A stretch of DNA of 64,000 bases from a virus (lineage: Duplodnaviria; Caudoviricetes). A program made the position numbers and the translations under genes. The DNA is taken from IMG/VR virus record IMGVR_UViG_3300031992_000012, positions 141,082-205,081 of that record. One strand, written 5' to 3'. A model generated the notes under the pieces. It saw only the letters and a program-made list of their open reading frames with translations, did no database searches and was not told where the DNA came from. How positions within the stretch are numbered: position 1 is the first letter of the stretch; each line of letters opens with the position of its first letter. Shown one piece after another: positions 13,423 through 38,275 of this stretch.

Positions 13423-13499
13423 GCAGGCATGGCTGAGTGGTCAAAGGCGCCGGACTGCAAATCCGTTAGTCACTGGTTCAAATCCAGTTGCCTGCTCCA
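13423..13499 (+). tRNA. tRNA-Cys(GCA)
   Basis: Acceptor GCAGGCA/TGCCTGC, anticodon loop CT-GCA-AA, GGTTCAAATCC, encoded CCA. Confidence 0.9.
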
Positions 13500-13509
13500 A
13501 GCTCTTTTT

Positions 13510-13601
13510 GGTGGGTCTTCCCCTCGCCGGTCTGTAAAACCGGTGTCCATGAAACAGAGGGGTCAGTTTGACGAGTGGGGCGGAACCACGACCCGCCACC
13601 A
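13510..13601 (+). tRNA. atypical tRNA-Tyr(GTA)-like RNA
   Basis: Acceptor ggtgggtc/gacccgcc + ACCA, anticodon arm ccggt-CTGTAAA-accgg; D arm rearranged and T loop non-canonical. Confidence 0.55.
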
Positions 13602-13608
13602 TCTTTAC

Positions 13609-13681
13609 GGTTTCGTAGCTCAGTCGGTAGAGCAGCGGACTCTTAATCCGTCGGTCCTCGGTTCAAGCCCGAGCGAAGCCA
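13609..13681 (+). tRNA. tRNA-Lys(CTT)
   Basis: Canonical cloverleaf, loop CT-CTT-AA. Confidence 0.9.
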
Positions 13682-13688
13682 TCATATA

Positions 13689-13763
13689 GGCCTTGTAGTA
13701 CAGTGGTCAGTATGCGCGGCTGTCTACCGCGCGACATGGGTTCAAATCCCGTCAAGGTCGCCA
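13689..13763 (+). tRNA. tRNA-Asp(GTC)
   Basis: Canonical cloverleaf, loop CT-GTC-TA, CCA. Confidence 0.9.
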
Positions 13764-13772
13764 GTTTTATTT

Positions 13773-13859
13773 CGGCGAGTAAGCTCAGCGGTCTTATAAG
13801 CCGTGCGTTTATAATCGAGCAGCGGTTGCATGCAGGTCCGACTCCTGCCTCGCCGACCA
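13773..13859 (+). tRNA. atypical tRNA-Ile(TAT)-like RNA
   Basis: Acceptor cggcgag/ctcgccg + ACCA, T arm gcagg-TCCGACT-cctgc, anticodon arm gcggt-CTTATAA-gccgt located inside a split D stem (gctc...gagc). Confidence 0.55.
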
Positions 13860-13869
13860 AAGCTCTAGT

Positions 13870-13945
13870 TCCAGCGTAGCTCAGTTGGTAGAGTAAGTGG
13901 CCGTTAACCACAAGGTCGCAGGTTCAAAACCTGCCGCTGGAGCCA
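13870..13945 (+). tRNA. tRNA-Asn(GTT)
   Basis: Cloverleaf, loop CC-GTT-AA, CCA. Confidence 0.85.
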
Positions 13946-14054
13946 GTTTGTCCCCCGTCCGTGTTTCCCTTTGTTTGACGATTCAAAAAGTAAACGTGCC
14001 TGTTTATCTCTGAATTGGTGGTTGATGTTAGTTCCCGGACGGGGGACTTTTCAA

Positions 14055-14144
14055 GGAAGGATGCCGGAGTTGGTCTAACGGAACGGACTGCTAATCCGTG
14101 GGGATTCAATGCCCGCCTGAGTTCGAATCTCAGTCCTTCCGCCA
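14055..14144 (+). tRNA. tRNA-Ser(GCT)
   Basis: Long variable arm, loop CT-GCT-AA, GCCA end. Confidence 0.9.
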
Positions 14145-14154
14145 TTCGTTTACC

Positions 14155-14226
14155 GCCTTCGTAGCACAGCGGCAGTGCAGGCGCCTTGTAAGCGCCAGGT
14201 CCTCGGTTCAAATCCGAGCGAAGGCT
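14155..14226 (+). tRNA. tRNA-Thr(TGT)
   Basis: Cloverleaf, loop CT-TGT-AA. Confidence 0.9.
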
Positions 14227-14230
14227 TCAT

Positions 14231-14321
14231 GGAGGGATGCAGGAGTGGTTTATCTGGCCGGTCCCGAAAACCGGTGTGCGCCTCAAAACGCCCCTGGGTT
14301 CGAATCCCAGTCCCTCCGCCA
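14231..14321 (+). tRNA. tRNA-Ser(CGA)
   Basis: Long variable arm, loop CC-CGA-AA, GCCA end. Confidence 0.88.
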
Positions 14322-14579
14322 TAGATTTCATCACAAGCAGGAAAGGGTTCTTTTTACCTCTCTTCAATCTCATCTGTTTTTGAACCTCTTGACTGTTTGA
14401 CGATGAAAAAGAAAGCAGGCTTAATGGGAGAGGCGAGCTCCCCTGCGTTCCCGTGGTAACAGCGGGGCAACGTGGTAGTTTAAATTGCGTAAAGAACGCC
14501 TGCGGGCATTTCCGCCGTACGCATAAGGGAGTCCCGTCATACCTCCTCCCGCAGCGCAACCTTCGGCGGCTTTTGCGAC

Positions 14580-14613
14580 GACCCGTCCATCAGAAACGAG
14601 GACGGGTCTTTTT
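14580..14613 (+). terminator. intrinsic terminator after the tRNA cluster
   Basis: gacccgtcc...ggacgggtc stem followed by TTTTT. Confidence 0.65.
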
Positions 14614-14672
14614 GTACGAATGGCTACGACCGGCCTTCGTGATATTCCGATGAACCCACATATGTCCGACGC

Positions 14673-14701
14673 TTGATTGACAGGTCGTCCCGATGTAGAA
14701 T
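14673..14701 (+). promoter_or_regulatory. candidate sigma70-type promoter
   Basis: TTGATT-17 bp-TAGAAT just after the terminator and upstream of two small ORFs and array B. Confidence 0.4.
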
Positions 14702-14746
14702 AAGCTCCACTGAGTCGAAACAGACGTAACAAGGAGCGCAATCAAC

Positions 14747-14896
14747 ATGACAAGGGCAGACGACTATTTGGCGGCGAAAGGACATAGGACACTCCTCCTG
14801 AACGGCGGTGAAACTTCGTATACGAGCGGAAACGTCCGTTCACTCGGAGTAAAGAGGAAGACTGTGAAAGATGGGGTCAAAGGAAGACAGGATTGA
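14747..14896 (+). CDS. 49-aa small protein (not in ORF track)
   Basis: AAGGAG RBS, then MTRADDYLAAKGHRTLLL... Confidence 0.45.
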   Translation: MTRADDYLAAKGHRTLLLNGGETSYTSGNVRSLGVKRKTVKDGVKGRQD

Positions 14897-15008
14897 ATTC
14901 AATGTGCCAGGAGTGGTCGTGCTTCTGGCGCTTGCGCTGTTCTTCCCGGTGGAAACGCTGCTGATGTGTGCGTTGGCCGGGTTGCTGTGGCGCGCGATGG
15001 GCGATTAG
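14871..15008 (+). CDS. 45-aa membrane peptide (not in ORF track)
   Basis: MGSKEDRIEFNVPGVVVLLALALFFPVETLLMCALAGLLWRAMGD; long hydrophobic stretch. Confidence 0.45.
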   Translation: MGSKEDRIEFNVPGVVVLLALALFFPVETLLMCALAGLLWRAMGD

Positions 15009-15023
15009 GAAAGATGTCGCCCT

Positions 15024-16445
15024 CTGGGTTTTGAGGAACACCGGGGATTCCCCGGTGGACGCGCAAAGGCGGTTGGAATTGCAGAAGCCTTACGGACTTC
15101 AGCTTATGAAGAGTACACCCGGAAAGAATATGTCATCCAAGGCTTTGTATGACATCCTTTCCGAGTCCACTCCTCACCGCTGAAGACCGACGGCTTCCCG
15201 TATTAAGAACACCCAGGAAAAACTTCGTGACTGGTATCCTGCTCGATGCTTCCCTATCGGGTTGTGAGCCCTGAAGACGGCAATGGCGCATTTGTGGCCA
15301 TTACCGTGCCCGCGACAGGGGTTTTGTTTGATTTTACCCTGTCCCTGCCTGCCTGTGAGCAGCCATCCATTGAGGGGGCCTGCTCGGTCGCCGCTGGCCG
15401 AAACTCCACAGCTAGTAGAAGGCGGCGATCGTCCCCGAGGCGCGTCATAGGGGAGTATCGCAGGCAAACGCGTCCTTTGATTAATCTGGAGTAAGCTTGA
15501 ACTTCGCCAGGGCAACCCTGGCGTGTCGCACTTGCATGTGACATTCAACGGCTTTTCCAGAAGAACGTATTCGCGTCTCAAGTCGCCGATCGATAGACGA
15601 ACACGCTGCACTCGTTCATCTCTCGATCGGCGACCAACCGTCGCGATACTTACTTCTGGATTAAGCTCTAAAGAAGCCCCTACCCTTTAATACAATGTTT
15701 GGACATGCCATGGCATCCATGGCGGTTCCCGTCGGAACAGTCAATACGGCGAGCGCACTACGGACCTAGTCCGGAAGCTTCACGTTATTTAACACGGAAG
15801 TTAAATAACCTTCCAGCTTCCGGACTCAGTCCACCGTGCTTGCCCATTTCAAAGAAACATTCAAAAGCGTTTTGGACCATGTCCGGGAACTCCGGACGAC
15901 TCGTAAAAGGAGAAAGGAATCTAGTTACCTTGACGCGGCCGTAGCAGCGCGCACAGACCAGCATCCACTTCGGTAGCTGCTAGGTCTGATGTCGCGCTGC
16001 TACGGCCGCGTCCTCGTTTCAACAAAAGGAAAACGCAATCAAATTTCCCGAAGGACATTCGGACACCGGCCGGGAATCCTGGCCGTCTCTGAAAGGGACA
16101 GAGAATAATGGAATCTTAAACCAGGTGCACCCATGCTCCAGCTACGGGATGGCGCCACACGCCGTACGCGTCGTGCCGGCGCCATCCCACGCTTACGCGG
16201 GTACACCGATGGTTTACCATTCCCATAAAAGGAATGTCAACGTCACCATAAAGCATTCGACTAAGGGCGAGGTACCCTCGCCGTGTTCCATTTGGAACAG
16301 GGAATTCACGGGACTCGCGCAGCCCAGCGCTGTGCGTGCCCTATGACGACTAATTCCCTGGCAGAAATATGAATGCCAGGCAATTCGTCAGCCACAGTGC
16401 CCGCACAGCGCTGGGCTGCTCTCGTCACCACAAAGGGAATGCTTT
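15024..16445 (+). ncRNA. array B: six clear retron msr-msd-like ncRNA units (15024-15216, 15495-15677, 15694-15861, 15867-16036, 16054-16238, 16250-16445) plus one atypical structured segment
   Basis: Closing arms ctgggt/acccag, gctt/aagc, aatgttt/aaacatt, gcgtttt/aaaacgc, gacattc/gaatgtc, aaagcattc/gaatgcttt; GGAC/GAAC/GAC after the 5' arm; 7-8-bp stem with 3-nt loop; long hairpin; AAAG/AAGG/TAAG before the 3' arm. Confidence 0.78.
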
Positions 16446-16488
16446 CCGCACGGCCGCCAGAACGGGTTTTCAACCATACAGGTATGAA

Positions 16489-17052
16489 ATGAAGATTCTA
16501 GCAATGGACCCCGCCCTGCGGCACACCGGCATAGTCCTCTTCGAAGACGGAAACCCTGTCTATGCAGACGTCCTCACCACCAAGCCGAACAAGCAGAAGT
16601 GGATGACGGTCGCCGAAAAAGACCAGGGTGACATGTCAGACTGGGCAAGGACGATTCGCCGGATAATCAGGGAGAAGCAACCGGACATCATCTGCTGTGA
16701 GCAGAGTCTGGGTGGTGGCCAGAGCGCGAGCTCCGTCAAGGCTCTCGCTCTGGTCAACGGCGCGATGTATGCGATGTCGACGGAAGACGCGATGCCACCG
16801 TGGATTTTCACGAGAGTGCACGATGCCAAGAAAGCCGTCACGGGGAAGACAACCGCTTCGAAAAACGAAATGATCGAAGGCGCTGTCAAGATGTTCCCCT
16901 CAATTCGCAAACGTCTCGTGTCGGTCAAATCGGCCGACGGATGGACAGGCGACGCAGAGCATATAGCCGATGCGTGCGCGTCCTATCTTGTCTGTGTGAA
17001 CTCCCCCGCAGTCAGAGTATTGCTGAATCCGAAAGGAAGATGCAAAGAATAA
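16489..17052 (+). CDS. ruvC: RuvC-like Holliday junction resolvase
   Basis: MKILAMDPALRHTG, CCEQ, KKAVTGKTTASK, HIADA motifs; start moved to ATG 16489. Confidence 0.85.
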   Translation: MKILAMDPALRHTGIVLFEDGNPVYADVLTTKPNKQKWMTVAEKDQGDMSDWARTIRRIIREKQPDIICCEQSLGGGQSASSVKALALVNGAMYAMSTEDAMPPWIFTRVHDAKKAVTGKTTASKNEMIEGAVKMFPSIRKRLVSVKSADGWTGDAEHIADACASYLVCVNSPAVRVLLNPKGRCKE

Positions 17053-17564
17053 TTGGCTGCACTCATTTTGACGATGAGAACATGGCCTCTATCAGGGGGT
17101 TCGCCTCCGTGTCCGAAATGGACAGCATGATGGAGGCCATGTGGAACTCGGCCGTATCTGAAGATGACTTGATCTACGTGCTTGGCGACTTTGCGGTACG
17201 TAGGCCGGCATACTGGAATGAACGGCTGAAGGGAAGGAAAATCCTGATACTCGGAAACCATGACGGTTTCATGGCGAAGGAGGCGGGATTTATTTCGGTA
17301 CAGGAAACACTGATGGTCAACGTAAGGCTTCAACGCGACACCCAGGCATGCTTCCTGTCGCACTACCCGTTTCTAAGCTGGCCGGAGCGAGGGAACGGAA
17401 GTGTGCATCTGCATGCCCACTGCCACGGAAGACAGCCCGCGTCGCTGCCCGGAATGCCGGGGCCTGCACGTTTGGACATGAGCGCCGAACTGTGGAGGTT
17501 CCAGCCTGTGCCACTCGAACAAGCAATCAACAAAGCAAAAGAAAAGGAAGAAAAACATGGCTAA
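17040..17564 (+). CDS. calcineurin-like metallophosphoesterase
   Basis: THF, LGDFA, GNHD, LSHYP, HLHAHCH motifs. Confidence 0.85.
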   Translation: MQRIIGCTHFDDENMASIRGFASVSEMDSMMEAMWNSAVSEDDLIYVLGDFAVRRPAYWNERLKGRKILILGNHDGFMAKEAGFISVQETLMVNVRLQRDTQACFLSHYPFLSWPERGNGSVHLHAHCHGRQPASLPGMPGPARLDMSAELWRFQPVPLEQAINKAKEKEEKHG

Positions 17565-17796
17565 CAATATCACGATTTGTGTCCGCGTTAACAACGACGA
17601 TGTGTACCTCACCTCCGGCGACGTCCACCACAGCTTCACCGCCGGCGAACTCCGCCGCGCCGCCGCCGCGTACGGCATCTCCATCAACGACGCCAAGCTG
17701 ATTCGCAATGGCCAGACCATCTCCGACGGCGAAATCGTCAACGACGGCGATGTCATCCGCACGCATTTCGGCAAGGGTGAGGACGGCCTCCGCTAA
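17557..17796 (+). CDS. ubiquitin-like (beta-grasp) protein
   Basis: 79 aa; NG...DGD.I pattern and C-terminal KGEDG-LR; next to E2-like, JAB and E1 genes. Confidence 0.65.
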   Translation: MANNITICVRVNNDDVYLTSGDVHHSFTAGELRRAAAAYGISINDAKLIRNGQTISDGEIVNDGDVIRTHFGKGEDGLR

Positions 17797-17820
17797 TCCG
17801 CTGGCCTGACTAATCCCATC

Positions 17821-17860
17821 GGGCCGGTGCAGCAATATCCAAGCTGCACCGGCCCGTTTC
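17821..17860 (+). terminator. strong hairpin / terminator after the Ubl gene
   Basis: 13-bp perfect stem gggccggtgcagc/gctgcaccggccc followed by T-rich sequence. Confidence 0.65.
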
Positions 17861-17891
17861 CTTATTTTTTTATTAGCAATCAGGAGAACCG

Positions 17892-18671
17892 ATGAACAAA
17901 GAGCTGGAACCAGAATTGCTTATCGTGGGGAACACCATTCACAAAGTGAGAAGAACCATTGAAGAATCCGCGTCGTTCGACGACCTGGTTGCGCAGGTTC
18001 GTGTCGAGCGCGGCGACAACCTCACGATGACACCTCCTCTCCCCGCCGCCGACGGCGCCTGCCGAATCTACGCCGAGCGCGGCAAGTATCGCGGGATGCT
18101 CATACAGAACAACCCGTGCGTGCGCAAGATCAATTATCACGACATCACCGACGACAGGCAGCCCGAGAAGACCTTCGAGGTATCTCTGCCATGGGTATGG
18201 GTGATGTGCGTATTCCAGGAAACGAACAAGAACAAGTTCGAGTGGATCAACTGCTACTTGTGCGCGACCTACCAGAACATCGTACAGAACGACCTGTCCG
18301 AGCCTGTCTTCCGCGTCCCTCTCCCGAATCAATGGGGAGCGGGACAGGGAAAGATGTGCACGGGCAGCGCTTTCCGTGGCATGGACACGTCCATGGCCCT
18401 CACGGCTGGACGCTGGATTACCTGTCTCTGGGACTCGACCTTCAACGGCGACCTGGAGCCAAGCGTCCCCTCATCCCTCAGCTCCGCCTGGCGCGCGCCC
18501 CGTGGCGATGTCCATCGAACCGTCCGCATCATGTCCATGCTCCGCAAGTGGGAGGAGATGACCAAGGAGAACAAGGTCTGCTCCCTCAGCCGTGAATTCG
18601 GCCTTCAGGAATACGGATGCAACATCGGCGGATTCATACAGCACGCGTTCTCAGGTCGTGACCACCTGTAA
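17892..18671 (+). CDS. prokaryotic E2-like (family D-type) protein
   Basis: LPW...PLPNQWGAGQGKMCTG...W.S.FN.D pattern with a candidate catalytic Cys; operon context. Confidence 0.6.
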   Translation: MNKELEPELLIVGNTIHKVRRTIEESASFDDLVAQVRVERGDNLTMTPPLPAADGACRIYAERGKYRGMLIQNNPCVRKINYHDITDDRQPEKTFEVSLPWVWVMCVFQETNKNKFEWINCYLCATYQNIVQNDLSEPVFRVPLPNQWGAGQGKMCTGSAFRGMDTSMALTAGRWITCLWDSTFNGDLEPSVPSSLSSAWRAPRGDVHRTVRIMSMLRKWEEMTKENKVCSLSREFGLQEYGCNIGGFIQHAFSGRDHL

Positions 18672-18680
18672 GGAGGAGTC

Positions 18681-19010
18681 ATGAACCAGGAATACGTGAA
18701 AATCGAAACCGAGAAGGAGCTAAAGCAGAGCTTCTTCGAAGCGTTCCAGCGTGCCCGCAGGACACCAGTACCAAACCACCCGTTTGTTGTGGTAGCCGAG
18801 ATTTTCCGGCAGCGCAACATTCCGACCGAATGGATGACAGACGGTCAGCTTATCCAGGACGACGTCAAACGTCTCCTGATGAGACTTGAGATGAACGGGC
18901 TTCCTGTGGCCACCTCATACCGGCCGCTTGTCGGAAGCCCGTTCGCCAAATTGTTTCGTCCAGCAAATCTGCCGTCCGAAGGTGACGACGGCGACGACCA
19001 GTTGATTTAA
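18681..19010 (+). CDS. hypothetical protein
   Basis: 109 aa, strong AGGAGG RBS. Confidence 0.6.
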   Translation: MNQEYVKIETEKELKQSFFEAFQRARRTPVPNHPFVVVAEIFRQRNIPTEWMTDGQLIQDDVKRLLMRLEMNGLPVATSYRPLVGSPFAKLFRPANLPSEGDDGDDQLI

Positions 19011-19023
19011 ATGGAGAACCAGC

Positions 19024-20835
19024 ATGAAGAGAATCGAAGAAATTACCGGACTCACCGGTATGCCTGTGTATCTCAACGAGGCGCCCGCAGAAGGCGAGCA
19101 GCCCGCAGCACCCACAGACAGCAATTGTTTCATTATTTGTTCGGATGGCGTTTATCGTTACGTACGGAATGACTATATGACAAGCACAATCAAACTCGAA
19201 GGTGGCATCCCGAGCGGTGCCGTGGCGAAAGGCGGCGAAACGATTTTCTGGACGGGCCCGAAACTGTCGGTCGAAGACTTCCACTTCGTCCGCAAGATTT
19301 TCGTCGGCGTGTACGACAAAATCAAGGCCGAATGCGATGTCCAGCTCGAGTGGTCGCCCTCGCTTGGCAAGTTCATCATCCGCCTACCGCACCAGACCGT
19401 TTCCGGCGCGTCCGTCCACTGGGAGACAGCCGACGACGACCCGTGCTGGATTGACCGCAAGCTCTGCCAGGCAAAGGACCTTCCCGAGGACGCGTTCCAC
19501 ATGGGGCGCATCCATTCCCACAACGTCATGAACGCGTTCTGGTCAGGTGTCGACACCGGCGACCAGGAACGCCAGGAATGGGGCATTCAGATTGTCATGG
19601 GCCATATCACCACGGACTGCGAGTACAAATGCCGTATCTGCAACTGCGGCCGCTATATCGACGTTGAACTGGAGGACGTCGTCGATTTCCCTCCGGTGGA
19701 GCGACTCGAAATCCCGGATGGCATTATCAAGCAGGCTGCTGCGACGACATTCTACAACGGTTCGACCTGGGGAAGCTCATATTATCAAAAGGGTTCGGGA
19801 TACTATCAAGGAAGCAACTACGGCGGCTCGAGCGCAGGCAGCGAAAACTTCAAAGGCAAGCACTGGAACGGGAAAGAGTGGGTGTACGACAAACCCGCAA
19901 CTACGGGTACGGCGACAACGCCTACGACGACTGGGGCCGCCCAGCCGACCGGGGAGGCCGCCGCAAACGGCGGTAGCTTTCCGGGAGCCGACGACGAAGC
20001 CGACTACGCGGGAGTTGAGGAAGATTACTATCGGCATGGAGGGTCAGACCGCCCTTTTGCCCGTGACGGCCGCGCAACCGGTGAAGCGGATAAAACCGTC
20101 AAGACAGCCGGACAACGCAGAAGAGGGCGCCCTCGGAAAAACGCTGACAGCGCTTCTACGGGGAGTGGAGTGGCTCCTGCTGGGGCAGTGACGGAACGGG
20201 ACATCGCCCCGATTCTGTATCTGACCTCGCAGGTTGTCATTCCTCCGTGCATTGACCGTTACAGTCCAGAATACCTGAGAAACCTGCTGAAGAACGAGCC
20301 GAGCCAACTGGCCGTCGAAGTGTGCCGCCACTCGCTTGGTGACGATGAACTCAAACGGTTCATGACGTTTTACACGTTCTACAAGGCCGTAGGTTTCCCG
20401 GACGACCAGATCAAGGGAATCGTCATCCCTCCTGATTGGATGAAGAAACTGGAGCCGTGGATTATCCACGGACAGGACCCCCGCAACTGCATCGACGAGG
20501 AGGGAATGCGAATCCTGCTCCAGGACGTCGGTGTGAATTTCGACGCTTTCCTGAACAGTTTTTCGGTCCGGTATCCCGTCCTCTCGACCACATTCAAAAA
20601 GGAGTTCTACTCCAAGCGCAAGGTCTCGATGGCGGACGTCTACAAGGACTTCGTCTGGGACCCCGAGACAGACCACTCAACAACGGGAATCAACTCGGCC
20701 GTCGACGCGCTTTGCCAGCTTGCGAAGACGACCGAGGAAAGCTTGATTCCGTTGCCGGCCTATCTCCTGACACAATTTTTCAAGTCACCTGAAGCCAAAC
20801 GCGATTGGCTTCTTCATTCGTTGTTGATGTACTAA
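19024..20835 (+). CDS. JAB/MPN-domain metalloprotease with long C-terminal extension
   Basis: E...PHQTVSGASV...IHSHNVMNAFWSGVDTGD JAMM-type motif, then a low-complexity linker. Confidence 0.8.
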   Translation: MKRIEEITGLTGMPVYLNEAPAEGEQPAAPTDSNCFIICSDGVYRYVRNDYMTSTIKLEGGIPSGAVAKGGETIFWTGPKLSVEDFHFVRKIFVGVYDKIKAECDVQLEWSPSLGKFIIRLPHQTVSGASVHWETADDDPCWIDRKLCQAKDLPEDAFHMGRIHSHNVMNAFWSGVDTGDQERQEWGIQIVMGHITTDCEYKCRICNCGRYIDVELEDVVDFPPVERLEIPDGIIKQAAATTFYNGSTWGSSYYQKGSGYYQGSNYGGSSAGSENFKGKHWNGKEWVYDKPATTGTATTPTTTGAAQPTGEAAANGGSFPGADDEADYAGVEEDYYRHGGSDRPFARDGRATGEADKTVKTAGQRRRGRPRKNADSASTGSGVAPAGAVTERDIAPILYLTSQVVIPPCIDRYSPEYLRNLLKNEPSQLAVEVCRHSLGDDELKRFMTFYTFYKAVGFPDDQIKGIVIPPDWMKKLEPWIIHGQDPRNCIDEEGMRILLQDVGVNFDAFLNSFSVRYPVLSTTFKKEFYSKRKVSMADVYKDFVWDPETDHSTTGINSAVDALCQLAKTTEESLIPLPAYLLTQFFKSPEAKRDWLLHSLLMY

Positions 20836-20855
20836 CCGGAGATCGAGACCAGTCA

Positions 20856-22427
20856 ATGAAAGAAATTAACATCATCATCGTGGGTCTGGGTGGCATCGGA
20901 AACATCGTGGCCGACGCCCTGTATCCATTTCTTCGCGGAACTGTCCGCGACGCACGTCTGAGACGCCTTGTCTTCATCGACAAGGACGTCTACGAAGTGT
21001 CCAACGTACCTCGCCAGAAGGCGGCCGCCTCCATGCTCGGCATGAACAAGGCGGCCGCCTGGGAGCACATCTACTCCCGGAGCAAGTACAACAATGTCCA
21101 GGCGACATTCTCCTCAATCCGTGAATGGATTACGCCGGCGACCGTGTCTACGTGTTTCGACGAAACCGTCGACAACGGCCCGACCATCATCATGAGCTGC
21201 GTGGACAACCACCCCGCACGCCTTCTCATGTCACGGTACTTGCAGCAGCGCGTCGAGACGCACAACGACCTGGTGCTCATCCAGGGCGGCTGTTCGCGCA
21301 ACCGCGCAACCACCGACATCTTCGGCAAATGGAACGGAACGATGGTCGGCACCCCAATCGAGGTCAACCATCCTGAAGTCCTTGAAGCCAAGAACGGCGA
21401 CCGCAACGGAATCTCCTGCGAGGAACTGGCGAACTCCTCGTCAGGCGACCAGACCTACGTCGAAAACTTCATGGCCGGGACCATGATGATGAACCTCATG
21501 TTCACCCTTCTGACGTCCCCGGCCGCTCTTACGAGCTTCATTGAAGAATTCTACGACATCGAGACGCACTACTACCTATGCGACAAGCGCCGCCCGGCCC
21601 CTCCTCCGGGAATGCGCCGCCAAGGCGCCACCCCTGCGGCTGTGTCCGTCGACGGCGAAGCCCCTTCCGGGGGCGCACCTGCGCCGGCAACCACGCCGGA
21701 GTTCGAACACGCCGTGTCGGTGGCGCGTGACAACCACGCCGCGATGCCTTTGCTGGCCTCGCTGGTTGTCGTGACGTCCGGCAACGGCAAGTCCGGCAAC
21801 ATAGCGGGCATCGCCGAAGCAAACGACGTCGGGGCGTTCCTGATGGACCTCCGTCGCCGCCGTCTTGAGCAGACCGTCATCAGCCGTACACTCAATGCGT
21901 ACGCCAAGGACGGTGTCGCCCTGATGAAGGCGTGCGTCGACGTGGCCGCAGTCGTTCCGGACATGCCCGGGCGTACGACGCGTGAGAAGCTCCTTGCGCT
22001 GGCCTCGGCCGCGCAGGGTTCCGACAAGGCGTCTGAAACGGCCCGCGACATGTGCCTGGCCGAGGCGCTGTGCGACGAAGACTTCAACAAGGCCCGCGAC
22101 GTCTACGCCGCATATGCGACCGACGGTGATTTCAACTGGAGCCTGGTTCTAGGCGACAAGACCGACGACGCCCTGGCGTTCGAAGTCAAGCCGAAGGAAG
22201 GTCCGGCCGCTACGCCGCCGGACGAAGAATCGGCGCCGCCCGCCGCCGAAGGCGAAGAGCACATCCCGATGCCGGGTGACTTCGGCGAAGACGAGGATGT
22301 CCCGTTCATCCCCGACGAAGAGTGTGAAGCAATGTCAGACGAGGCGCTGGCCAACTATGTTGTCGCCGTCGCCCGTCAAGCAAGAAGGAAAAGACAACAG
22401 GCACGTGCCGCACAACCAACAGCCTAA
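20856..22427 (+). CDS. ThiF/E1-like activating enzyme
   Basis: VGLGGIG, IDKD, SNVPRQ, NKA, CVDN..AR motifs; SCEE candidate active Cys. Confidence 0.85.
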   Translation: MKEINIIIVGLGGIGNIVADALYPFLRGTVRDARLRRLVFIDKDVYEVSNVPRQKAAASMLGMNKAAAWEHIYSRSKYNNVQATFSSIREWITPATVSTCFDETVDNGPTIIMSCVDNHPARLLMSRYLQQRVETHNDLVLIQGGCSRNRATTDIFGKWNGTMVGTPIEVNHPEVLEAKNGDRNGISCEELANSSSGDQTYVENFMAGTMMMNLMFTLLTSPAALTSFIEEFYDIETHYYLCDKRRPAPPPGMRRQGATPAAVSVDGEAPSGGAPAPATTPEFEHAVSVARDNHAAMPLLASLVVVTSGNGKSGNIAGIAEANDVGAFLMDLRRRRLEQTVISRTLNAYAKDGVALMKACVDVAAVVPDMPGRTTREKLLALASAAQGSDKASETARDMCLAEALCDEDFNKARDVYAAYATDGDFNWSLVLGDKTDDALAFEVKPKEGPAATPPDEESAPPAAEGEEHIPMPGDFGEDEDVPFIPDEECEAMSDEALANYVVAVARQARRKRQQARAAQPTA

Positions 22428-23324
22428 TTGATGTCAACCAGACAGTATACAGAAACTACATACATATCCCGTACTGATTGGCCCGCCCGTGCGTGCAAAA
22501 TCAAAGAGGATGTGTTTCTTCATGCGAAACGCCTGGCGCTGACGGCCGGTTCGGCCACAGCGCTGGCGTATCTGCGCATGAAGGGCCTGCCGGACACTAC
22601 GGACACCGACGATGAATTCTTGATGCGCCTGGCGCAGTCATGCAATCGCGACGACCTGAAGATGTCCAAGTGCGCCCACTGTGCTTTCCGTAAGAAGTGC
22701 TGCGGAACGCCGGTGGGCTGCCGGTCGGCCATCGACGACAGAACTCCCATATGGAAGGTTGCGTTCACTTTCTACGCCGCCCCCGGGAGATTGAGCAGGG
22801 ATTGGAAATGGATGACCTGCTACGACAGAGGATGGGCCAAATATTGCGACGGGGAGATCAGGCAGGTCTCCCTGTCCGATATGGATTTGTTCCCGGTTTG
22901 CTCCACCTTGATGTCCGATGTCTTTATCAACTACGACGGAATCCATATCACACGCGTCAGCCCCGGCTCGCTTGACCTGGTCAGGTGCGGGGTGCTTCCG
23001 CTGAAAGGCGAAACGTATGATGGGTACCTGGCCCGTATCGAGGAGATAAGGCAGACAATTGCGTCAAAGGACAGAAAGAAGGAGGATACCGGGAGGCCCG
23101 TCGAAGAAAGGCTTCACGCGATTTTCGTCGGAATCGGACAAGGGGACGCCCTGACCTCGCTATACGGCAACGACGCCGTGGCGATGGCCAGGGACTACTT
23201 CCCGGGAATGAAGCCGGAGGAAATAGCGAACCAATACCGTGTATCCACAGTAAAGGTGAGTGAAGAAGACGTAAGGAAGGCGGCGATAGAACAGCGCAAG
23301 GCCGCCGGGGGAGGCGGTAAATGA
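22428..23324 (+). CDS. Cys-rich hypothetical protein coupled to the retron-type RT
   Basis: CAHCAFRKKCCGTPVGC cluster; ATGA overlap with the RT start. Confidence 0.6.
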   Translation: MMSTRQYTETTYISRTDWPARACKIKEDVFLHAKRLALTAGSATALAYLRMKGLPDTTDTDDEFLMRLAQSCNRDDLKMSKCAHCAFRKKCCGTPVGCRSAIDDRTPIWKVAFTFYAAPGRLSRDWKWMTCYDRGWAKYCDGEIRQVSLSDMDLFPVCSTLMSDVFINYDGIHITRVSPGSLDLVRCGVLPLKGETYDGYLARIEEIRQTIASKDRKKEDTGRPVEERLHAIFVGIGQGDALTSLYGNDAVAMARDYFPGMKPEEIANQYRVSTVKVSEEDVRKAAIEQRKAAGGGGK

Positions 23325-24679
23325 GTTATTCCGTCAGAACAATAGATGTCCGTACCACGGCTTCGCATGTGGTCCGTTCCCTGTACGCTCCGAAAGGCAG
23401 CGGGAATACAAGGACGCGTCTGGCATACACCGATCTAGGCTACATGAGGAACGGCGGGGTATACGAATGTCTCTGCAAGGTAGGTGACAAGTACAAGCCG
23501 GATGCCCCGTGGGCCACAGAAAGGACGATCATTACGCTTGACATGGTCTCCTCCATCACAATCGCGTTCCTCAAGGAATGCACGATACCGGGAATGACAG
23601 ACAGGTATCTGTCGAGCATAGTGAACGAGTCCCTGCATTCTCCTGAAAAGATGCACCGCCACTACGCCGTGTTCGAGATTCCGAAGAAGTCAGGCGGAAC
23701 CCGTGTAATCGAAGCCCCGGACGACAAACTGAAGACGCTGCAAAGGGCGATACTCCATAACGCGTGGTATTCGCTCGGCGGCCTCCGCACATGCGTCCAG
23801 GGATTCGTTCCGGGTCGCGGAACCAAGACAAACGCGGAAATGCACTTCAACCCTGCCTTCGCAAGAAAGCAGTTCCTGTTGAAGAGCGACTTCCGCGACT
23901 TCTTCCCGTCAGTAACGTCAATCAACTTCTACGACAAGCTGATTACACTGACGAACCAGCGCCGGGTGCGCGGCACCTTCTTCAAGGTTCCCCCGAAGAT
24001 GATTGCGGCGCTGAAGCGCAACAACGAGCTGTTCCCGACTGTACGTCCGTACATCGACAATATGCCGAATGACGGAATTTGGGCGAAGGACATGGCGGAC
24101 ACGGAAACCTCGCGGGAAGAGAGAAAAATAGCCGAAGGGCTGTTCATACTTCTTCTGTGGGGGCTGATTTCACTGTGTTCGATGGACGGACGGATGCCCC
24201 AGGGCAGCCCGTGCAGTCCAGCCATGACCAATCTATACCTGGACGCTTTCCATACCTCGGCGATGTGCTGCGCCAGGATGGTCAGCGAGAGAAACGACGA
24301 CAACGTCGTGTATACAATCTTCGCCGACGACATGTGCGTTACCGCCAACAAGATCGACAGCGTGCTGCAGATGCAGGGAATGCTTCGCGGGCTCGTCCGT
24401 GGCTATCCAGACATCAGCATGAACGAGGCGAAGACAGGTATATTCAAATGCGGTCAGCCACAGAAGGTGACAGGCGTCTGCATAACAGACCGCATCTCCA
24501 TATCCCGCCAGACGAGGGACGTGGTCAGGGCCGAGCTTCATAATGCCGCGACAGGCAGGAAGACGCTCGACGAGAAAGACAAGATGCGTCTCAAGGGCAT
24601 GCGGGCGCATATAATCGGAATAGACCCTGAAGGCTGGAACAAACGCTGCGAGCCGCTGTTCCGACAGGTGTTCGGATGA
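23321..24679 (+). CDS. retron-type reverse transcriptase
   Basis: IPKKSGGTRVIEAP, GFVPGR, retron signature NAEMH (NAxxH), DFRDFFPS, PQGSPCSP, FADD, retron VTG motif (QKVTGV). Confidence 0.9.
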   Translation: MSYSVRTIDVRTTASHVVRSLYAPKGSGNTRTRLAYTDLGYMRNGGVYECLCKVGDKYKPDAPWATERTIITLDMVSSITIAFLKECTIPGMTDRYLSSIVNESLHSPEKMHRHYAVFEIPKKSGGTRVIEAPDDKLKTLQRAILHNAWYSLGGLRTCVQGFVPGRGTKTNAEMHFNPAFARKQFLLKSDFRDFFPSVTSINFYDKLITLTNQRRVRGTFFKVPPKMIAALKRNNELFPTVRPYIDNMPNDGIWAKDMADTETSREERKIAEGLFILLLWGLISLCSMDGRMPQGSPCSPAMTNLYLDAFHTSAMCCARMVSERNDDNVVYTIFADDMCVTANKIDSVLQMQGMLRGLVRGYPDISMNEAKTGIFKCGQPQKVTGVCITDRISISRQTRDVVRAELHNAATGRKTLDEKDKMRLKGMRAHIIGIDPEGWNKRCEPLFRQVFG

Positions 24680-25686
24680 TACACATAGCCGCCGACCTGC
24701 ATTTGCGTCCATGCATCTGGAAAGGCCACCCTGAAATATCGGGTGACCAGTACAGGGCGTGGGCGCAGCTTTGCAACGCGGTGGCCGAGGACCCGGACGG
24801 GGTGCTTATCCTGGCCGGCGACACGTTCGATACGCCATGCCCTTCCGGCGAGACCGAGTATGTCTTCCGGAAGGGCATGGATTTACTGCGAAGCAAAGGA
24901 AGACGCTGCCTGTTCATTTCCGGCAACCACGACATCGAGGGTATTCCCAGGCCGGTTCTCTTCGGCGCGGAGCCGCTGGACGAGCCAAGGGACATATTGG
25001 GGATGAAGGCGGCCGGCGTCCATTTCACAAGAAGTTCCACTGAGTTGCACAACACGATAGAATCGTTCCCTCCGCTCGACATCCTTGTCCTGCACACTGG
25101 TTTCCGGCATCTTCTAGGTTTCAACGAGACATGGCAGATAAGCAAGGAGGACATCCCCGATTCAATAGGGATGGTGTTCTCAGGGCATGTTCATGTCCAC
25201 TCCGAGGAAGGGAAGGTATATTCACCAGGCAGCCTGGCCCTGCACAGGGCGGACGAGATAGACAAAGGCCACGGGTGGTTCATTGTAAACCCGGCCGACG
25301 GGTCCGTCACGTGGAGGGAGGTCATGACACGTATGTTCGTGTCCGTTGATGTGGACGCGGGGTTCAGCCTCGACTCGCTGAATCCCCTCGTCGGCAGAAC
25401 GGGGGAAAAACCAGTCGTTCTTCTTAATTATCAAAATTCGGACCTGGCATTGGCCGACGCGGTCATAGACAGGTTCAAGGAAAGCCTGTTTTTCGTAAGA
25501 AACGCCCGCGCGGCCGAAAAGGCGCAGGTAATTGAGGACACGGAGGCGACGGCGTTCGACCCGTCGGTCGTTGCCACGGACTATTTCACAAAAAAACTGA
25601 GCACGGAGCAACGGGAGCTGGCGGTGGAGATGATGACCGCCAACGATCCGGCGTCCGTACTTGCAAGATTCATCGAAAGGGGATGA
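24676..25686 (+). CDS. SbcD/Mre11-like nuclease
   Basis: ADLH, AGDTFD, GNHD, GHVH, YSPGS motifs. Confidence 0.88.
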   Translation: MIHIAADLHLRPCIWKGHPEISGDQYRAWAQLCNAVAEDPDGVLILAGDTFDTPCPSGETEYVFRKGMDLLRSKGRRCLFISGNHDIEGIPRPVLFGAEPLDEPRDILGMKAAGVHFTRSSTELHNTIESFPPLDILVLHTGFRHLLGFNETWQISKEDIPDSIGMVFSGHVHVHSEEGKVYSPGSLALHRADEIDKGHGWFIVNPADGSVTWREVMTRMFVSVDVDAGFSLDSLNPLVGRTGEKPVVLLNYQNSDLALADAVIDRFKESLFFVRNARAAEKAQVIEDTEATAFDPSVVATDYFTKKLSTEQRELAVEMMTANDPASVLARFIERG

Positions 25687-25687
25687 C

Positions 25688-26074
25688 ATGGATATCAAAT
25701 TTACAAAAACGCATCTATGGGTACGCGAGCTTGAGGGGGGAGTGCTGCTGATGGGTCTTAGCGGACACGCTGTCATGTCCCTCGAAAGGGTCGAGTACAT
25801 AGACACGGAGATTTTACAACGCGTTGTAAAATCGGGCGAGGACATGGGCAGCGTGGAATCCACAAAAACCGCAAGCTCAATAGTTTGCCCATTCGACCTT
25901 GAGATTCTGGACAAACGTGACGGGACGGAGATAGACCTTGACAAGTTCAACGAGAACCCGGAAAGCGAGGACAACTGGCTCTACAAGGTTTCACCGAAAG
26001 GCGACTACAAGGAAGCCCTTATGAGCGCGGAAGACTACGCAAAGACGCTGGGCATGCCCGATGAAACTGCTTGA
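25688..26074 (+). CDS. glycine cleavage system H-like (lipoyl carrier) protein
   Basis: FTKTHLWV, VESTKTAS with the lipoylation-site Lys, N..P...WLYKV. Confidence 0.8.
   Translation: MDIKFTKTHLWVRELEGGVLLMGLSGHAVMSLERVEYIDTEILQRVVKSGEDMGSVESTKTASSIVCPFDLEILDKRDGTEIDLDKFNENPESEDNWLYKVSPKGDYKEALMSAEDYAKTLGMPDETA
25810..25833. promoter_or_regulatory. 24-bp perfect palindrome, recurrent operator/parS-like site
   Basis: GATTTTACAACGCGTTGTAAAATC; near copies at 10103-10122 and 52592-52615. Confidence 0.55.
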
Positions 26075-34930: not shown

Positions 34931-35541
34931 AACTGCACATGTGCCCTTGTGGCGCCCAGCCCAGCGTGATGAAATTCGGGCAGAGCTGGATTGTTGAGTG
35001 CTCCAGTTGCGCACAGAACTCGGGCGCCTTCTCCACGCCCGAGCTTGCCGTGTCACGCTGGAACAAAATGGTTGCCGCCATCGACGGCATCGTGGAAGTT
35101 AGGGTCAAGCGACTGCGCGAGAACGCAAAGCTGCCCGAAAGAAAACACCCCGGGGACATCGGGCTGGACCTGTACGCCTCGGAGGTCGTCAACTACGGAA
35201 ACATCCTGTACGTCGGCGCGGGAATCGCCGTCGAGCTTGGCGGGATACCCGTGTACGGATACCAGCTCCGTCCAAGGAGCTCGATAATCTACACGGGGCT
35301 GTTCATGCCCAACTCGCCGGGGACAATCGAGCGGACGTACCGTGGCGAACTGGCCGTCAACTTCATGATTGGACCGAAGCCTGCCATCGAAAAGGCGCGG
35401 GGAATCTATGAAGTCGGCGACTGCTTCTGCCAGTTGTGTTTCCCTGAGACAATAGACCCCGCCAAGATAAAGGTAATGGAGGTCGACCGCCTTTCGGAGA
35501 GCGAAAGGGGGACTGACGGATTCGGCTCGACGAACAAATGA
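34927..35541 (+). CDS. dut: dUTPase with N-terminal zinc-ribbon domain
   Basis: GLDL, RSS, GTIERTYRGE, RGTDGFGST; N-terminal CPCG...CSSC...WN. Confidence 0.85.
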   Translation: MKLHMCPCGAQPSVMKFGQSWIVECSSCAQNSGAFSTPELAVSRWNKMVAAIDGIVEVRVKRLRENAKLPERKHPGDIGLDLYASEVVNYGNILYVGAGIAVELGGIPVYGYQLRPRSSIIYTGLFMPNSPGTIERTYRGELAVNFMIGPKPAIEKARGIYEVGDCFCQLCFPETIDPAKIKVMEVDRLSESERGTDGFGSTNK

Positions 35542-36932
35542 CGTCGAGGACATTCACGGTGGAAAAGGTCGGGCGGTGCGTCAAGGGCGTCGTGTGGCGC
35601 CCCGGCATGCCCGTCAGGTCCATCGGTCGCTGGACCGCCGTCGACACCGAGACGCTGATGATTGACGAGAACAAGCCGGGGAGCGTCCCCGAGCTCGTCC
35701 TTCTGACGGCGTACGGTGGCGGCGACACGGTAGAACTTGTCTGGTGGTACGACGTGGACGTGTATCTGGCCAGCCTGATGAACTCGGGAACGACTTTCGT
35801 TTTCCACAACGCGCCATTCGACATGAACGTAACGGGCATGGACAAATGGCTGCCGGTGGTGGACAACGACAAGGTCGTGGACACCGGTATCCAATGGGTG
35901 CTTCACAAGATGGCCACAATCGGTTTGTCCGACGAGGCCGACGAATATCCGAAGCTTGCCCGTGTGGTGCAGGACGTCCTCGGCGAGACGCTCGAGAAGG
36001 ACGGCGAAGTCAGATGCACGTTCACCCGCGACATGGAGCTTGACGACGAGCACGCCATATACGCCTGCGGCGATGCCGTGGCCACCTGGCTGGCGGCGTT
36101 CACCATGTCGCCGGCGTTCGTCATGCCACCGACAATGGCAACCCAGATAAAGGGGTTCATAAGTCTCGACAGCATAAGCCGAAACGGAATCCTTGTCGAT
36201 CGGGACTGGATGGACAACCTGAGAAACGAGTATCTCGCAAAGAAGGACGAGCTGAAACTGACGCTCGCCGACTACGGGATAAACGTTGACAAGGAGCTTG
36301 AGACACGGGAGATAATCTCGTACCTTCAATCCACCATCCTTCCCACGCTGCCCGACAATCCGCTTGCCGACGACTATCGTACGGCGCTTGTCTGGCTTGG
36401 CAAAGGCGAGGATACGGAATGGCCTGTGTTCGGGCAGAAGGGGAAGATAAACCCCGCCGTGACGGAATGGAAGAACGGCCCGCCGTTCAACCTTCCGCTC
36501 AAGGCGACGCCCAAGCAGATGGTCAACGTCCTGTGGAAAATCGCCATGAACATCGAGGCCGGCCGGGAAAAGGACGACGGCCTGCAGGAATGGTGGGAGA
36601 AGCACGACGGATGGCCCCCGGGCTACAAGCAGGAGGGCAAGACGAAACAGCTTCAAAGGCTGATGGCGGAATCGGAGAAGTTCTGCAGCCAGCCGTTCCC
36701 GAAGACCAAAAGCGGTCTGTACGCGCTCGACGACAAGGCGCTCGAGCAGATACCGACCCAGGACATCGAACGCCTGAAGTTCCTTAAGGCGCTCAAGGAG
36801 TACAACCATGCCGAGAAGATGGCTTCTACGTATCTGGACTCCGACAAGCTGATAAGGGCCGACGGGCGTGTGCATCCTAGATACATACCAGTAAAAAGTA
36901 CTGGTAGAACGAGTTGCAAAAATCCGAATGTT
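35538..36932 (+). CDS. polA: DNA polymerase family A, exon 1 (3'-5' exonuclease and start of polymerase)
   Basis: VDTET, FHNAPFD, YACGDA; ends TGRTSCKNPNV. Confidence 0.88.
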
Positions 36933-38275
36933 TGAACCTTCCTTGATTATACAAAAAGGGTGTATATTAAGAGGTGGGAAAGGGATAAATACAAATAATC
37001 AAGGAAACAACAATGCCGAGACATGCAGTAACTACACCATGTAGTATGTGTGGCGCACCAGTTAGCGCAAAAAGAAAAAGAGTATGTGTTATAAAAGGCT
37101 TTCCTATTACGTGTGTCCCTTGTGGGGAAACGCTAATAGTAGAGAGAAGAAAAGTTAGAGCCAGAGAAAAAGCAGAGCGCAAAGACAAGGAGTTAAATCT
37201 TCATTGTGCTGTGTGTGGTAAAGCTATTCCTTGGAAACCCGTATATTCCTGTGCAGCGAGAATACCTAAAACGTGTTCTAGGAGCTGTGGAGCTAAGCTT
37301 GGTATGAAGGACAGGAAGTATACGAAAGAAGCTTTTATTGATAAGTTGACTTCGTATATCAAAAGTGTGGGGCATCGAATGACTTATAAAGAGATAATAG
37401 AGGGATGTGGCGTAAAAACGACAATCCTTCAAAAATTCGGAATAAGCCTTCTTGCCTTGCAAAAAGAGATATTCGGGCTGCAGTGCGATCGTGTTCATCA
37501 CATGTCTTCAGATGGAAGTTTGTCTTCCCAAGCAGAGGACAGTGACTATGTAGAGATAAGAGATGCTATAAAAAGCAAACAGAACGACGAGATCGTACTG
37601 GCGGCAATAAGGAAGTGCATAAGTAAAAACGGACGGTACACCGGAATAGTCGAACTTATGAAGAAAACAGGATTAAGTTTCGAACCTCTCCATAGGTACG
37701 ATATTCAGGGGATAAATACAAGTCTAGGGTATGAGAACGAACGCCGTTCCTGTGCTGAGGATGACCTGTACTTATTGCTAGTGGAACGTTTTGGAAAAGA
37801 CGCTGTTAGTCGTGAGCATACATTCATGGATTGTCGAAGCGTAAAGGGCTGGCCTTTACGCTTCGACTTCTATATTCCGACATACTCCGCACTGATAGAA
37901 CTTGACGGGGTTAGTCACGACACGAATAACCCCATACACGGGCTATGCGTTGATGAAAACCGTAAAATCAAGGAAGCTTATGCAAAAGAACACGGGATGC
38001 GACTTTTCGTATACACATATAAGGATATAACAGAAATACCGGCATTGCTCGAAAGAATAGTTTTGGACATTCTAAAACCGGTTGAACTGCTGGAACCCCC
38101 TAGCGGGCAATCAGCAACCAAGCCGACAGAGATGTCGGAAGGCTCAGAGACCATCGAAAGGCACAGCGATGTGAACCAAGTAGAGTAGGAAAGTCGTCGT
38201 TCCCAAGCGGCCGGCATGACGTATATCATGAAGATATGGTCCGACACTCTCAGCAATGGGAGATAACAAGCAGAG
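36933..38275 (+). mobile_element. group I intron (IA2-like) in the DNA polymerase gene
   Basis: Exon ends in U and intron ends in G; removal joins NPNV to QNLPR in frame; core elements gaactgctggaa, aatcagcaa, ctcagagacca, aagatatggtcc. Confidence 0.88.
37013..38188 (+). CDS. intron-encoded homing endonuclease (zinc fingers + PD-(D/E)xK/Vsr-like domain)
   Basis: CxxC repeats; LRFDFYIP...LIELDG..H; low GC; C-terminus runs into the intron core. Confidence 0.8.
   Translation: MPRHAVTTPCSMCGAPVSAKRKRVCVIKGFPITCVPCGETLIVERRKVRAREKAERKDKELNLHCAVCGKAIPWKPVYSCAARIPKTCSRSCGAKLGMKDRKYTKEAFIDKLTSYIKSVGHRMTYKEIIEGCGVKTTILQKFGISLLALQKEIFGLQCDRVHHMSSDGSLSSQAEDSDYVEIRDAIKSKQNDEIVLAAIRKCISKNGRYTGIVELMKKTGLSFEPLHRYDIQGINTSLGYENERRSCAEDDLYLLLVERFGKDAVSREHTFMDCRSVKGWPLRFDFYIPTYSALIELDGVSHDTNNPIHGLCVDENRKIKEAYAKEHGMRLFVYTYKDITEIPALLERIVLDILKPVELLEPPSGQSATKPTEMSEGSETIERHSDVNQVE

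Follow-up and report, generated by a model that had tools for sequence, protein, structure and literature searches.

A putative ubiquitin-like conjugation cassette in a tailed phage genome

The 64,000-nucleotide stretch of DNA analysed here (the window) corresponds to bases 141082-205081 of IMG/VR record IMGVR_UViG_3300031992_000012, a virus record of 205,081 bp estimated to be 94% complete. Between positions 17557 and 22427, on the + strand, it carries a tightly packed, co-directional set of genes that is probably a phage-encoded, self-contained ubiquitin-like conjugation pathway. The preliminary description of this DNA had grouped a ubiquitin-like protein (Ubl), an E2-like protein, a JAMM peptidase and a ThiF/E1 enzyme in one cluster, and all four, together with a hairpin, lie where it had put them. 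The grouping is not due to chance, since 11 IMG/VR phage contigs and one cultured phage have the gene set too. The window belongs to a tailed phage: among its genes are those of a large terminase, two helicases, a DNA polymerase, a UvsX-like recombinase and SbcCD. The first four kinds of gene, present within a 205-kb virus record, are the grounds for taking the cassette to be of phage origin. Its GC content (0.55-0.59) is like that of the rest of the window. The cassette consists of the following features:

17557-17796, + strand: Ubl precursor of 79 residues, assigned from its open reading frame (ORF), the beta-grasp matches of its model and the register of its C-terminus
17820-17871, + strand: hairpin resembling an intrinsic terminator, with a U-rich tract; stem arms at 17820-17833 and 17843-17856
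17892-18671, + strand: E2-like carrier enzyme of 259 residues, of Prok-E2_D type, assigned from Pfam PF14460, a homologue alignment and an AlphaFold model
18681-19010, + strand: 109-residue protein, the positional counterpart of a small, fast-evolving protein that follows E2 in related cassettes
19024-20835, + strand: JAMM/JAB metallopeptidase of 603 residues, assigned from its JAMM motif and a PRTRC_A match
20856-22427, + strand: ThiF-type E1 of 523 residues, assigned from matches to PF00899 and PRTRC_ThiF

The comparisons below draw on 14 IMG/VR loci (L002-L015) that came from a scan with an E1 profile, and in which the other cassette genes were located with purpose-built profiles.

Predicted tag, carrier enzymes and peptidase

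The E1 matches Pfam ThiF (PF00899) with an E-value of 2.4e-13 and 50.2 bits, against a cut-off of 28.1 bits, and contains the GxGG nucleotide loop, the NxxRQ arginine finger and the VDN magnesium site that characterise E1/ThiF-MoeB enzymes. In an alignment of 13 sequences, reaching down to 21% identity and including one cultured phage, residues G10, G12, G13, D44, N50, R53, K65, V116-D117-N118, R122, P173, C188, Q199 and N204 are invariant. The most likely start of the protein is the ATG at 20856, which gives the 523-residue form chosen by the gene callers of other databases; all eight homologues begin at the equivalent methionine, and for this reason the TTG at 20805 implied by the preliminary description is disfavoured. 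Numbered from this ATG, Cys188 is the sole invariant cysteine and stands 15 residues after a conserved His-Pro-Glu. A second cysteine, apparently conserved among close relatives, was rejected as it is not kept in the wider family. The adenylation domain occupies approximately residues 1-245 and is followed by a variable, acidic/basic C-terminal extension. By sequence, the nearest solved E1 structure is that of UBA5, a minimal E1 (E 6e-4). The intact adenylation motifs and the invariant cysteine are thus consistent with the ThiF/E1 identity proposed before.

The peptidase has a complete JAMM site (Glu ... His-x-His-x7-Ser-x2-Asp), formed by Glu103, His164, His166, Ser174 and Asp177, and these residues are invariant in 10 relatives, down to 20% identity and including the cultured phage, which bears out the earlier assignment. 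An N-terminal region of about 100 residues and the JAB domain together span approximately residues 1-230, with weak Pfam matches in the protein to DUF2016 (E 0.035) and AT_hook. They are followed by a low-complexity linker rich in Gly, Ser and Tyr, which contains an AT-hook-like Arg-Gly-Arg-Pro-Arg-Lys stretch, and by a C-terminal domain of about 200 residues common only to the closest relative; two relatives are of similar length. A profile made from the JAB alignment retrieved nothing useful from the PDB, and no Cap3 or BilC chain.

It has to be considered whether the peptidase is the working part of the cassette, stripping the Ubl or CD-NTase conjugates that hosts make with Bil or with type II anti-phage signalling systems based on cyclic oligonucleotides (CBASS), while Ubl, E1 and E2 act as decoys or competitors. 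Although the JAB enzymes of Bil and CBASS do cleave conjugates (PMC10557695), and the window JAB has intact catalytic residues, is the largest protein of the set and carries extra domains, cleavage needs only a peptidase, yet the Ubl and the cysteines of E2 and E1 are conserved across very distant relatives. The JAB, moreover, matches PRTRC_A and Prok-JAB and not Cap3 or BilC. We regard this counter-defence role as improbable.

The E2-like protein is rare, with only 37 relatives found in a search of 1.84 billion representative proteins. Among 33 aligned sequences the PN...C motif, Asn146 and Cys156 are invariant, as are P51, P100, G158 and D187; past Cys156, the residues Gly158, Asn185, Asp187, Leu188 and Trp220 are invariant or nearly so, an Asn-x-Asp pair among them. 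Pfam Prok-E2_D is matched by 24 of the 33 homologues, the best at E 2.8e-9. The AlphaFold model (predicted local distance difference test, pLDDT, 88.6) places strands within residues 57-126, then a loop with Asn146 and Cys156, then a helix at 168-181, a layout that resembles that of E2 enzymes, in which the Asn/Cys loop lies between the beta-meander and a helix. When this model was compared exhaustively by VIA-align, 23 of the 24 top rows were chains of E2 or E2-variant enzymes with the ubiquitin-conjugating (UBC) fold. The description of this protein as E2-family-like, with a PN...CTG motif, thus gains from the invariance of PN...C and from the dominance of UBC-type chains in the fold search.

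The 109-residue protein encoded after E2 matched no family, Pfam, NCBIfam and PADLOC included, and its Atlas search was uninformative (model pLDDT 0.41). An ORF of about 96-115 residues occupies the same position in L002-L015, with weak mutual sequence similarity.

The putative tag ends in Gly-Glu-Asp-Gly-Leu-Arg, with Gly77 as the predicted reactive residue and Leu-Arg as a tail. The ESM Atlas model of the exact protein (pLDDT 0.69) matched only beta-grasp families (ubiquitin, RnfH, ThiS, MoaD and SAMP2), with template modelling (TM) scores of 0.67-0.75. A profile built from the window Ubl and its positional counterparts found ubiquitin first in the PDB, with single-chain E-values of 0.005-0.03; these are the values used here, as those for polyubiquitin are inflated by summing over repeats. 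Finally, the counterpart Ubl of one related phage weakly matches ThiS (E 0.0075). These three lines are independent and individually modest, and they point to a beta-grasp fold, as the preliminary description had suggested for the 79-residue protein. The only sequence relative of the window Ubl is 90% identical and has the same tail. Alignment to the other phage Ubls by hhalign gave a probability of only 62% over 34 columns, and phmmer found no match between the window Ubl and the Ubl precursor of Bacillus phage Edson, a cultured jumbo phage that encodes a related cassette. The case for homology of the window Ubl to Prok_Ub would thus be built on where its gene lies, its length, the register of its C-terminus and the evidence on its fold.

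Trimming of the tail by JAB to expose the glycine, also proposed earlier, has comparative support. When the Ubls are aligned, Gly77 comes 13 residues after Asp65, which is nearly invariant, and the same spacing separates that aspartate from the last Gly/Ala in all relatives, past which the tail comprises 0, 1, 2 or 4 residues; Gly77 is thereby aligned with C-terminal residues that are either free or would be exposed by processing. The Ubls of L004 (3628-3852) and L005 (8567-8779) are identical except for a four-residue tail after the terminal glycine, a natural pair with which JAB processing could be followed. The Edson precursor (L017:2979-3878; PV796108.1, 176629-177528) contains five head-to-tail Prok_Ub repeats of 57 residues and a 15-residue tail, and each repeat ends in the same Lys-Gly motif, which runs directly into the next one. 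Since the repeats are arranged in this way, the precursor must be cut after each glycine, which supports trimming. For the JAB enzymes of Bil, pre-processing of the Ubl has been shown experimentally (PMC10557695). Taken together, the register, the L004/L005 tails and the Edson precursor suggest that the window JAB would remove Leu-Arg.

The ThiS match of the positional relative, the presence of a tRNA cluster 3 kb upstream and the use of ThiF-type E1 enzymes for cellular sulfur transfer could also indicate that the Ubl carries sulfur, as ThiS, MoaD or TtuB do, for the thiolation of tRNA or nucleotides. However, neither an E2 with an invariant cysteine nor a JAB has a part in sulfur transfer, the E1 has no rhodanese domain, and no rhodanese or PP-loop thiolase was found in the 205-kb genome by searches that scored in 13/14 and 14/14 control genomes. 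The Edson precursor likewise fits a modifier and not a carrier. The sulfur-carrier role was rejected, being very unlikely.

The hairpin in the 95-nt spacer between the Ubl and E2 genes (17820-17856) has a perfect 14-bp stem and a 9-nt loop and is followed by a U-rich tract. Its folding energy is -32.5 kcal/mol (z -5.4), a value that none of 200 shuffled sequences equalled, and it is the sole perfect intergenic inverted repeat within 16.3-26.2 kb. GC-rich hairpins of 12-15 bp with a U-tract stand directly 3' of the Ubl gene in L002, L003, L011, L009 and L014, their sequences being unrelated to that of the window; L004 is a less clear case. The preliminary description had reasoned that a strong hairpin at this site would give excess Ubl, and the retention of a terminator-like element in five distant relatives supports that proposal. 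Because the hairpin lies between the genes and leaves no room for a new promoter, with only 35 nt between the hairpin and the E2 start, the enzymes are probably made from read-through transcripts and the Ubl is probably produced in excess over them.

Relation to known conjugation systems

The closest known kind of operon is class 6d of Iyer, Burroughs and Aravind (2006), whose genes encode a small Ubl with a C-terminal glycine, an E2-like protein, an alpha-helical protein that diverges rapidly, a JAB that also has an N-terminal domain, and an E1 (PMC1779556). This class corresponds to Pfam Prok-E2_D, Prok_Ub and Prok-JAB and to TIGRFAM PRTRC A, B, C and ThiF. As judged by sequence, the window cassette shares its five-gene content, including the small fast-evolving protein, for which the 109-residue protein is a counterpart by position; it also has a standalone Ubl with a predicted reactive C-terminal glycine and an E1 without a rhodanese domain. 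The best or near-best NCBIfam matches of its JAB and E1 are PRTRC_A (E 8e-7, 28.8 bits against a cut-off of 101.8) and PRTRC_ThiF (E 7.5e-9, 35.3 bits against a cut-off of 144.75), and relatives of the JAB match Prok-JAB. Among 14 control genomes, Prok-E2_D and PRTRC_B both scored only in Bacteroides thetaiotaomicron, a species listed for class 6d.

The likeness to class 6d is incomplete. The hallmark of 6d E2 proteins is a histidine after the cysteine, whereas no histidine is invariant in the 33 sequences aligned here and an Asn/Asp pair is found instead. For the N-terminal alpha+beta domain of the 6d JAB, which has a conserved Arg and Trp, the comparison is mixed: the window JAB has its N-terminal region of about 100 residues and the weak DUF2016 match, but no Trp is invariant across the 10 relatives. 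Both JAB and E1 have long extra C-terminal regions, and the cassette resides in lytic-looking phages, whereas 6d operons are carried by plasmids and conjugative elements.

The cassette belongs neither to PRTRC proper (ParB-related, ThiF-related cassette; TIGR03734-03742) nor to Bil, Bub or CBASS. With respect to PRTRC, the PRTRC_A and PRTRC_ThiF scores are far below their cut-offs, PRTRC_B and PRTRC_C had no match at E <= 0.1, and ParB_N had none in the 205-kb genome, although it scored in 11/14 control genomes.

The gene order Ubl-E2-peptidase-E1 is that of Bil (BilA Ubl, BilB E2, BilC JAB, BilD E1; PMC10557695), and in both systems E1 and E2 have a cysteine, and a JAB is expected both to process the Ubl beforehand and to undo its conjugation. 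However, Bil is bacterial and defensive, and BilD is a multidomain enzyme with a Cys domain, whereas the window E1 is minimal, with a conserved part of about 245 residues and its cysteine in a putative loop. The E2 of type II Bil has a Cys-Glu-His-His signature; no Glu or His is invariant here. Profile searches of the PDB found no Bil chain.

Bub (formerly '6E'; Ye et al., PMC11601596) is likewise an operon of E1, E2, Ubl and peptidase, and a BubB chain was among the fold matches of the E2 model (Z 3.4). Bub, in contrast, has no catalytic cysteines, works through oxyesters, formed on an E1 tyrosine and an E2 serine, and uses a DUF6527 serine protease (PMC11601596), whereas in the phage cassettes both cysteines are invariant and the peptidase is of the JAMM type.

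Type II CBASS, in which Cap3 is the JAB, shares the E1/E2/JAB triad, and the nucleotide-binding region of the window E1 weakly matches the PADLOC E1-E2 models. Cap2, however, is an E2-E1 fusion, while here the two enzymes are encoded by separate genes with two others between them and there is a dedicated Ubl. Moreover, CBASS modifies its CD-NTase, while in the window the modifier would be its own Ubl and not the C-terminus of an enzyme; a search limited to the cluster gave no match to the CD-NTase family.

Outside prokaryotes, the five-repeat Edson Ubl with its tail recalls eukaryotic polyubiquitin, a very distant similarity, the window Ubl being a single domain with a two-residue tail. The relation to UBA5-type minimal E1 enzymes is also very distant.

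Occurrence in other phages and genomic setting

Complete or nearly complete forms of the cassette are found in phages of quite different genome sizes. Two jumbo-phage contigs (L002, 192 kb, and L003, 185 kb) have Ubl, E2, small protein, JAB and E1 in the order of the window, while in nine smaller contigs (L004, L005, L007, L009, L010, L012-L015) the order is Ubl, E2, small protein, E1 and JAB. Some of the latter are complete genomes of 40-82 kb that have terminal repeats and encode a T7-type DNA polymerase. Ubl, E2, JAB and E1 are thus present in 11 IMG/VR contigs, or in 13 when L008 and L011 are included, in which Ubl, E2, small protein and E1 are followed by the contig end where JAB would be; L006 has E1 alone. 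In complete phage genomes of 40-42 kb the cassette takes up about a tenth of the genome. In the podovirus-like 40-kb carriers L007-L015 (e.g. L011:5941-6165) the cassette is located just 3' of a small protein resembling sigma-70 region 4, and a lysozyme-like protein and the T7-type DNA polymerase are encoded downstream of it.

The closest relatives of the window cassette include an E1 78% identical on a 209.5-kb contig, together with contigs of 19.9 kb and 9.8 kb; the 9.8-kb one, an ENA contig of 9,781 bp, contains relatives of E2, JAB and E1 together. The longest contigs with other E2 relatives measure 97-188 kb. Among cultured phages, Bacillus phage Edson (PV796108.1, 233.8 kb) was reached through a distant E2, P0013, by tblastn against 50,697 GenBank phages. 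Besides its Prok_Ub poly-Ubl (E 1e-27), it encodes a Prok-E2_D protein that scores above the cut-off (40.1 bits), a Prok-JAB and a ThiF protein. The Edson genes are arranged as poly-Ubl, two unknown proteins of 124 and 512 residues, E2, JAB and ThiF, with an SPFH/Band 7 protein nearby. At least the E2 is also encoded by vB_BceM_WH1 (LC597490.1) and vB_BauM_KLEB27-3 (OM634661.1), which are likewise cultured jumbo phages of Bacillus. In these three phages the cassette proteins are annotated only as hypothetical.

Several other searches did not recover relatives. This was the case for blastn of the cluster against GenBank phages, for single-protein and E2-profile scans of IMG/VR and a JGI metagenome scan, for tblastn of the window E1, window E2, L002 E2 and L011 E2 against the 50,697 GenBank phages, and for tblastn against 72,556 plasmids, for which the queries were the window E2 and a distant one. 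The 109-residue and 298-residue proteins, the C-terminal domain of JAB and the C-terminal extension of E1 had no BLAST counterpart in the related loci.

In the window, the cassette is placed in a translationally coupled, co-directional block of early/replication genes. Its immediate neighbours are:

16369-17052, + strand: RuvC-like gene, upstream of the cassette
ending at 17564, + strand: metallophosphoesterase gene, directly upstream; the Ubl start overlaps its end by 8 bp
22431-23324, + strand: 298-residue protein without family match, 3' of the cassette; overlaps the reverse transcriptase start by 4 bp
23321-24679, + strand: retron-type reverse transcriptase (retron St85 family, E 7.8e-46; PADLOC retron reverse transcriptase models), followed by SbcD and SbcC

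Other features of the window deserve mention in their own right. Seven tRNA genes (Cys, Lys, Asp, Asn, Ser, Thr, Ser) lie at 13423-14321, and the next 2 kb or so (14321-16369) lack long ORFs. An ORF of 137 residues without PHROG match (25661-26074) is wedged between the SbcD-like and SbcC-like genes. An intron seems to interrupt the DNA polymerase gene: a polymerase fragment at 35538-36935 stands just before an HNH homing-endonuclease ORF (37013-38188), which adjoins a group I intron (Rfam RF00028, 57.2 bits) at 38036-38263. A single ORF of 3,103 residues occupies 52645-61956 on the + strand.

The reverse transcriptase is close enough downstream to raise the question of whether the cassette works together with a flanking retron-like system that includes it. 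This is quite improbable, since neighbouring positions in a long co-directional block say little and none of five related cassette-carrying phage records, four of them at least 90% complete, has an RVT_1 match. On the basis of these five records, coupling to a reverse transcriptase was rejected as a general rule. Nor do the 298-residue protein and the reverse transcriptase have a counterpart in L002-L015, so that neither can be counted as part of the Ubl cassette.

The same neighbour bears on a further alternative, that the phage carries the cassette as an anti-phage or superinfection-exclusion system, which would act like Bil and, in co-infected cells, tag the structural proteins of competitor phages. 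The characterised prokaryotic operons of Ubl, E1, E2 and peptidase (type II CBASS, Bil and probably Bub) are all antiviral (PMC11601596, PMC10557695); to this can be added the Bil-like gene order and the location, 0.9 kb downstream, of a reverse transcriptase from a family usually tied to defence. However, PADLOC gave no match for Ubl, E2, the 109-residue protein or JAB, and only a weak Cap2-type match for the nucleotide-binding region of E1. It must also be taken into account that the cassette is kept in complete 40-42-kb genomes with terminal repeats despite the share of the genome that it occupies, and that in the window it is part of the early/replication block and has an ordinary GC content. 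A defensive role is therefore considered unlikely, although it is a serious rival and deserves more weight than counter-defence or coupling to the retron-like system.

Proposed chemistry and use by the virus

From the folds and families, the invariant catalytic residues, the gene set, the C-terminal register and the hairpin, we infer a series of chemical steps and the existence of a protein target. The best-supported chemistry, which we also consider probable, would be a thioester relay from E1 to E2, with JAB acting in both maturation and reversal. The Ubl would be made as a precursor, probably in excess over the enzymes owing to the terminator-like hairpin, and JAB would remove its C-terminal Leu-Arg to expose Gly77. 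E1 would then adenylate Gly77 and take the Ubl onto the invariant Cys188, from which it would be handed to Cys156 of E2. The E2 may attach the Ubl to target lysines either alone or guided by the 109-residue protein or by the C-terminal extensions of JAB and E1. JAB could also reverse the tagging.

Several points weigh against a conjugation pathway of this kind. The window E2 matches Prok-E2_D at E 1.2e-4 and 22.2 bits, below the 25-bit cut-off, and is best treated as a distant member of the family. The Z scores of its VIA-align matches (4.0-5.3) are in the range that the tool calls common for chance, so that only the uniformity of the matched chains is telling; Foldseek of the model and a profile of the E2 alignment gave nothing significant and nothing useful, respectively, in the PDB. 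The window Ubl matched no Ubl family of Pfam or NCBIfam by sequence. Its AlphaFold model, made from two sequences, has the order beta-beta-alpha-beta-beta at low confidence (pLDDT 47), and the top Foldseek rows obtained with it, although nearly all ubiquitin, are non-significant (E >= 1). Cys188 is a candidate for the catalytic cysteine of E1 by virtue of its conservation. No E3-like protein and no target were identified. A literature search found neither biochemical evidence for this cassette or its closest bacterial class, 6d, nor any experimental paper on the mechanisms of Prok-E2, Prok_Ub or PRTRC. The preliminary description had taken it as established that operons of E1, E2, JAB and Ubl conjugate proteins, and this has to be restricted for the PRTRC-like operons that it listed, on which we found no experimental paper.

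As for what the virus would gain, we tentatively favour a pro-viral role, in which host or phage proteins are tagged during takeover, as the most likely use. This preference is due to the maintenance of the cassette in small complete phage genomes, its place among early/replication genes and the lack of a match to known defence families beyond a generic E1. It is possible, though somewhat less firmly held, that several unrelated phage lineages (jumbo phages, 40-kb podovirus-like phages and the cultured Bacillus jumbo phages) run a conjugation pathway of their own as an offensive tool. Such a tool might, with similar reservation, tag host proteins of defence, proteolysis or DNA metabolism, or the replication proteins of the phage itself, early in infection.

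Prokaryotic Ubl conjugation has risen to a major theme only since 2022-2024, through CBASS Cap2, Bil and Bub, in every case as a weapon of the host against phages. We found no paper on phage-encoded Ubl-E1-E2 cassettes, and a comparative review of 224 jumbo phages mentions none. An intact, conserved kit on the phage side would show that phages use the same chemistry, and three cultured Bacillus jumbo phages would become the first tractable models for the uncharacterised 6d (Prok-E2_D) class. The two-residue tail and the single invariant cysteine in each of E1 and E2 offer testable handles, and the tryptic Gly-Glu-Asp-Gly remnant, with a calculated mass of about 358.1 Da, would mark modified lysines in mass spectrometry. 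If the offensive use is true, the over-expressed precursor Ubl and the terminator would set the ratio of tag to enzyme, and the cassette would be the prokaryotic-virus counterpart of the long-known manipulation of ubiquitin by eukaryotic viruses and the mirror image of Bil.

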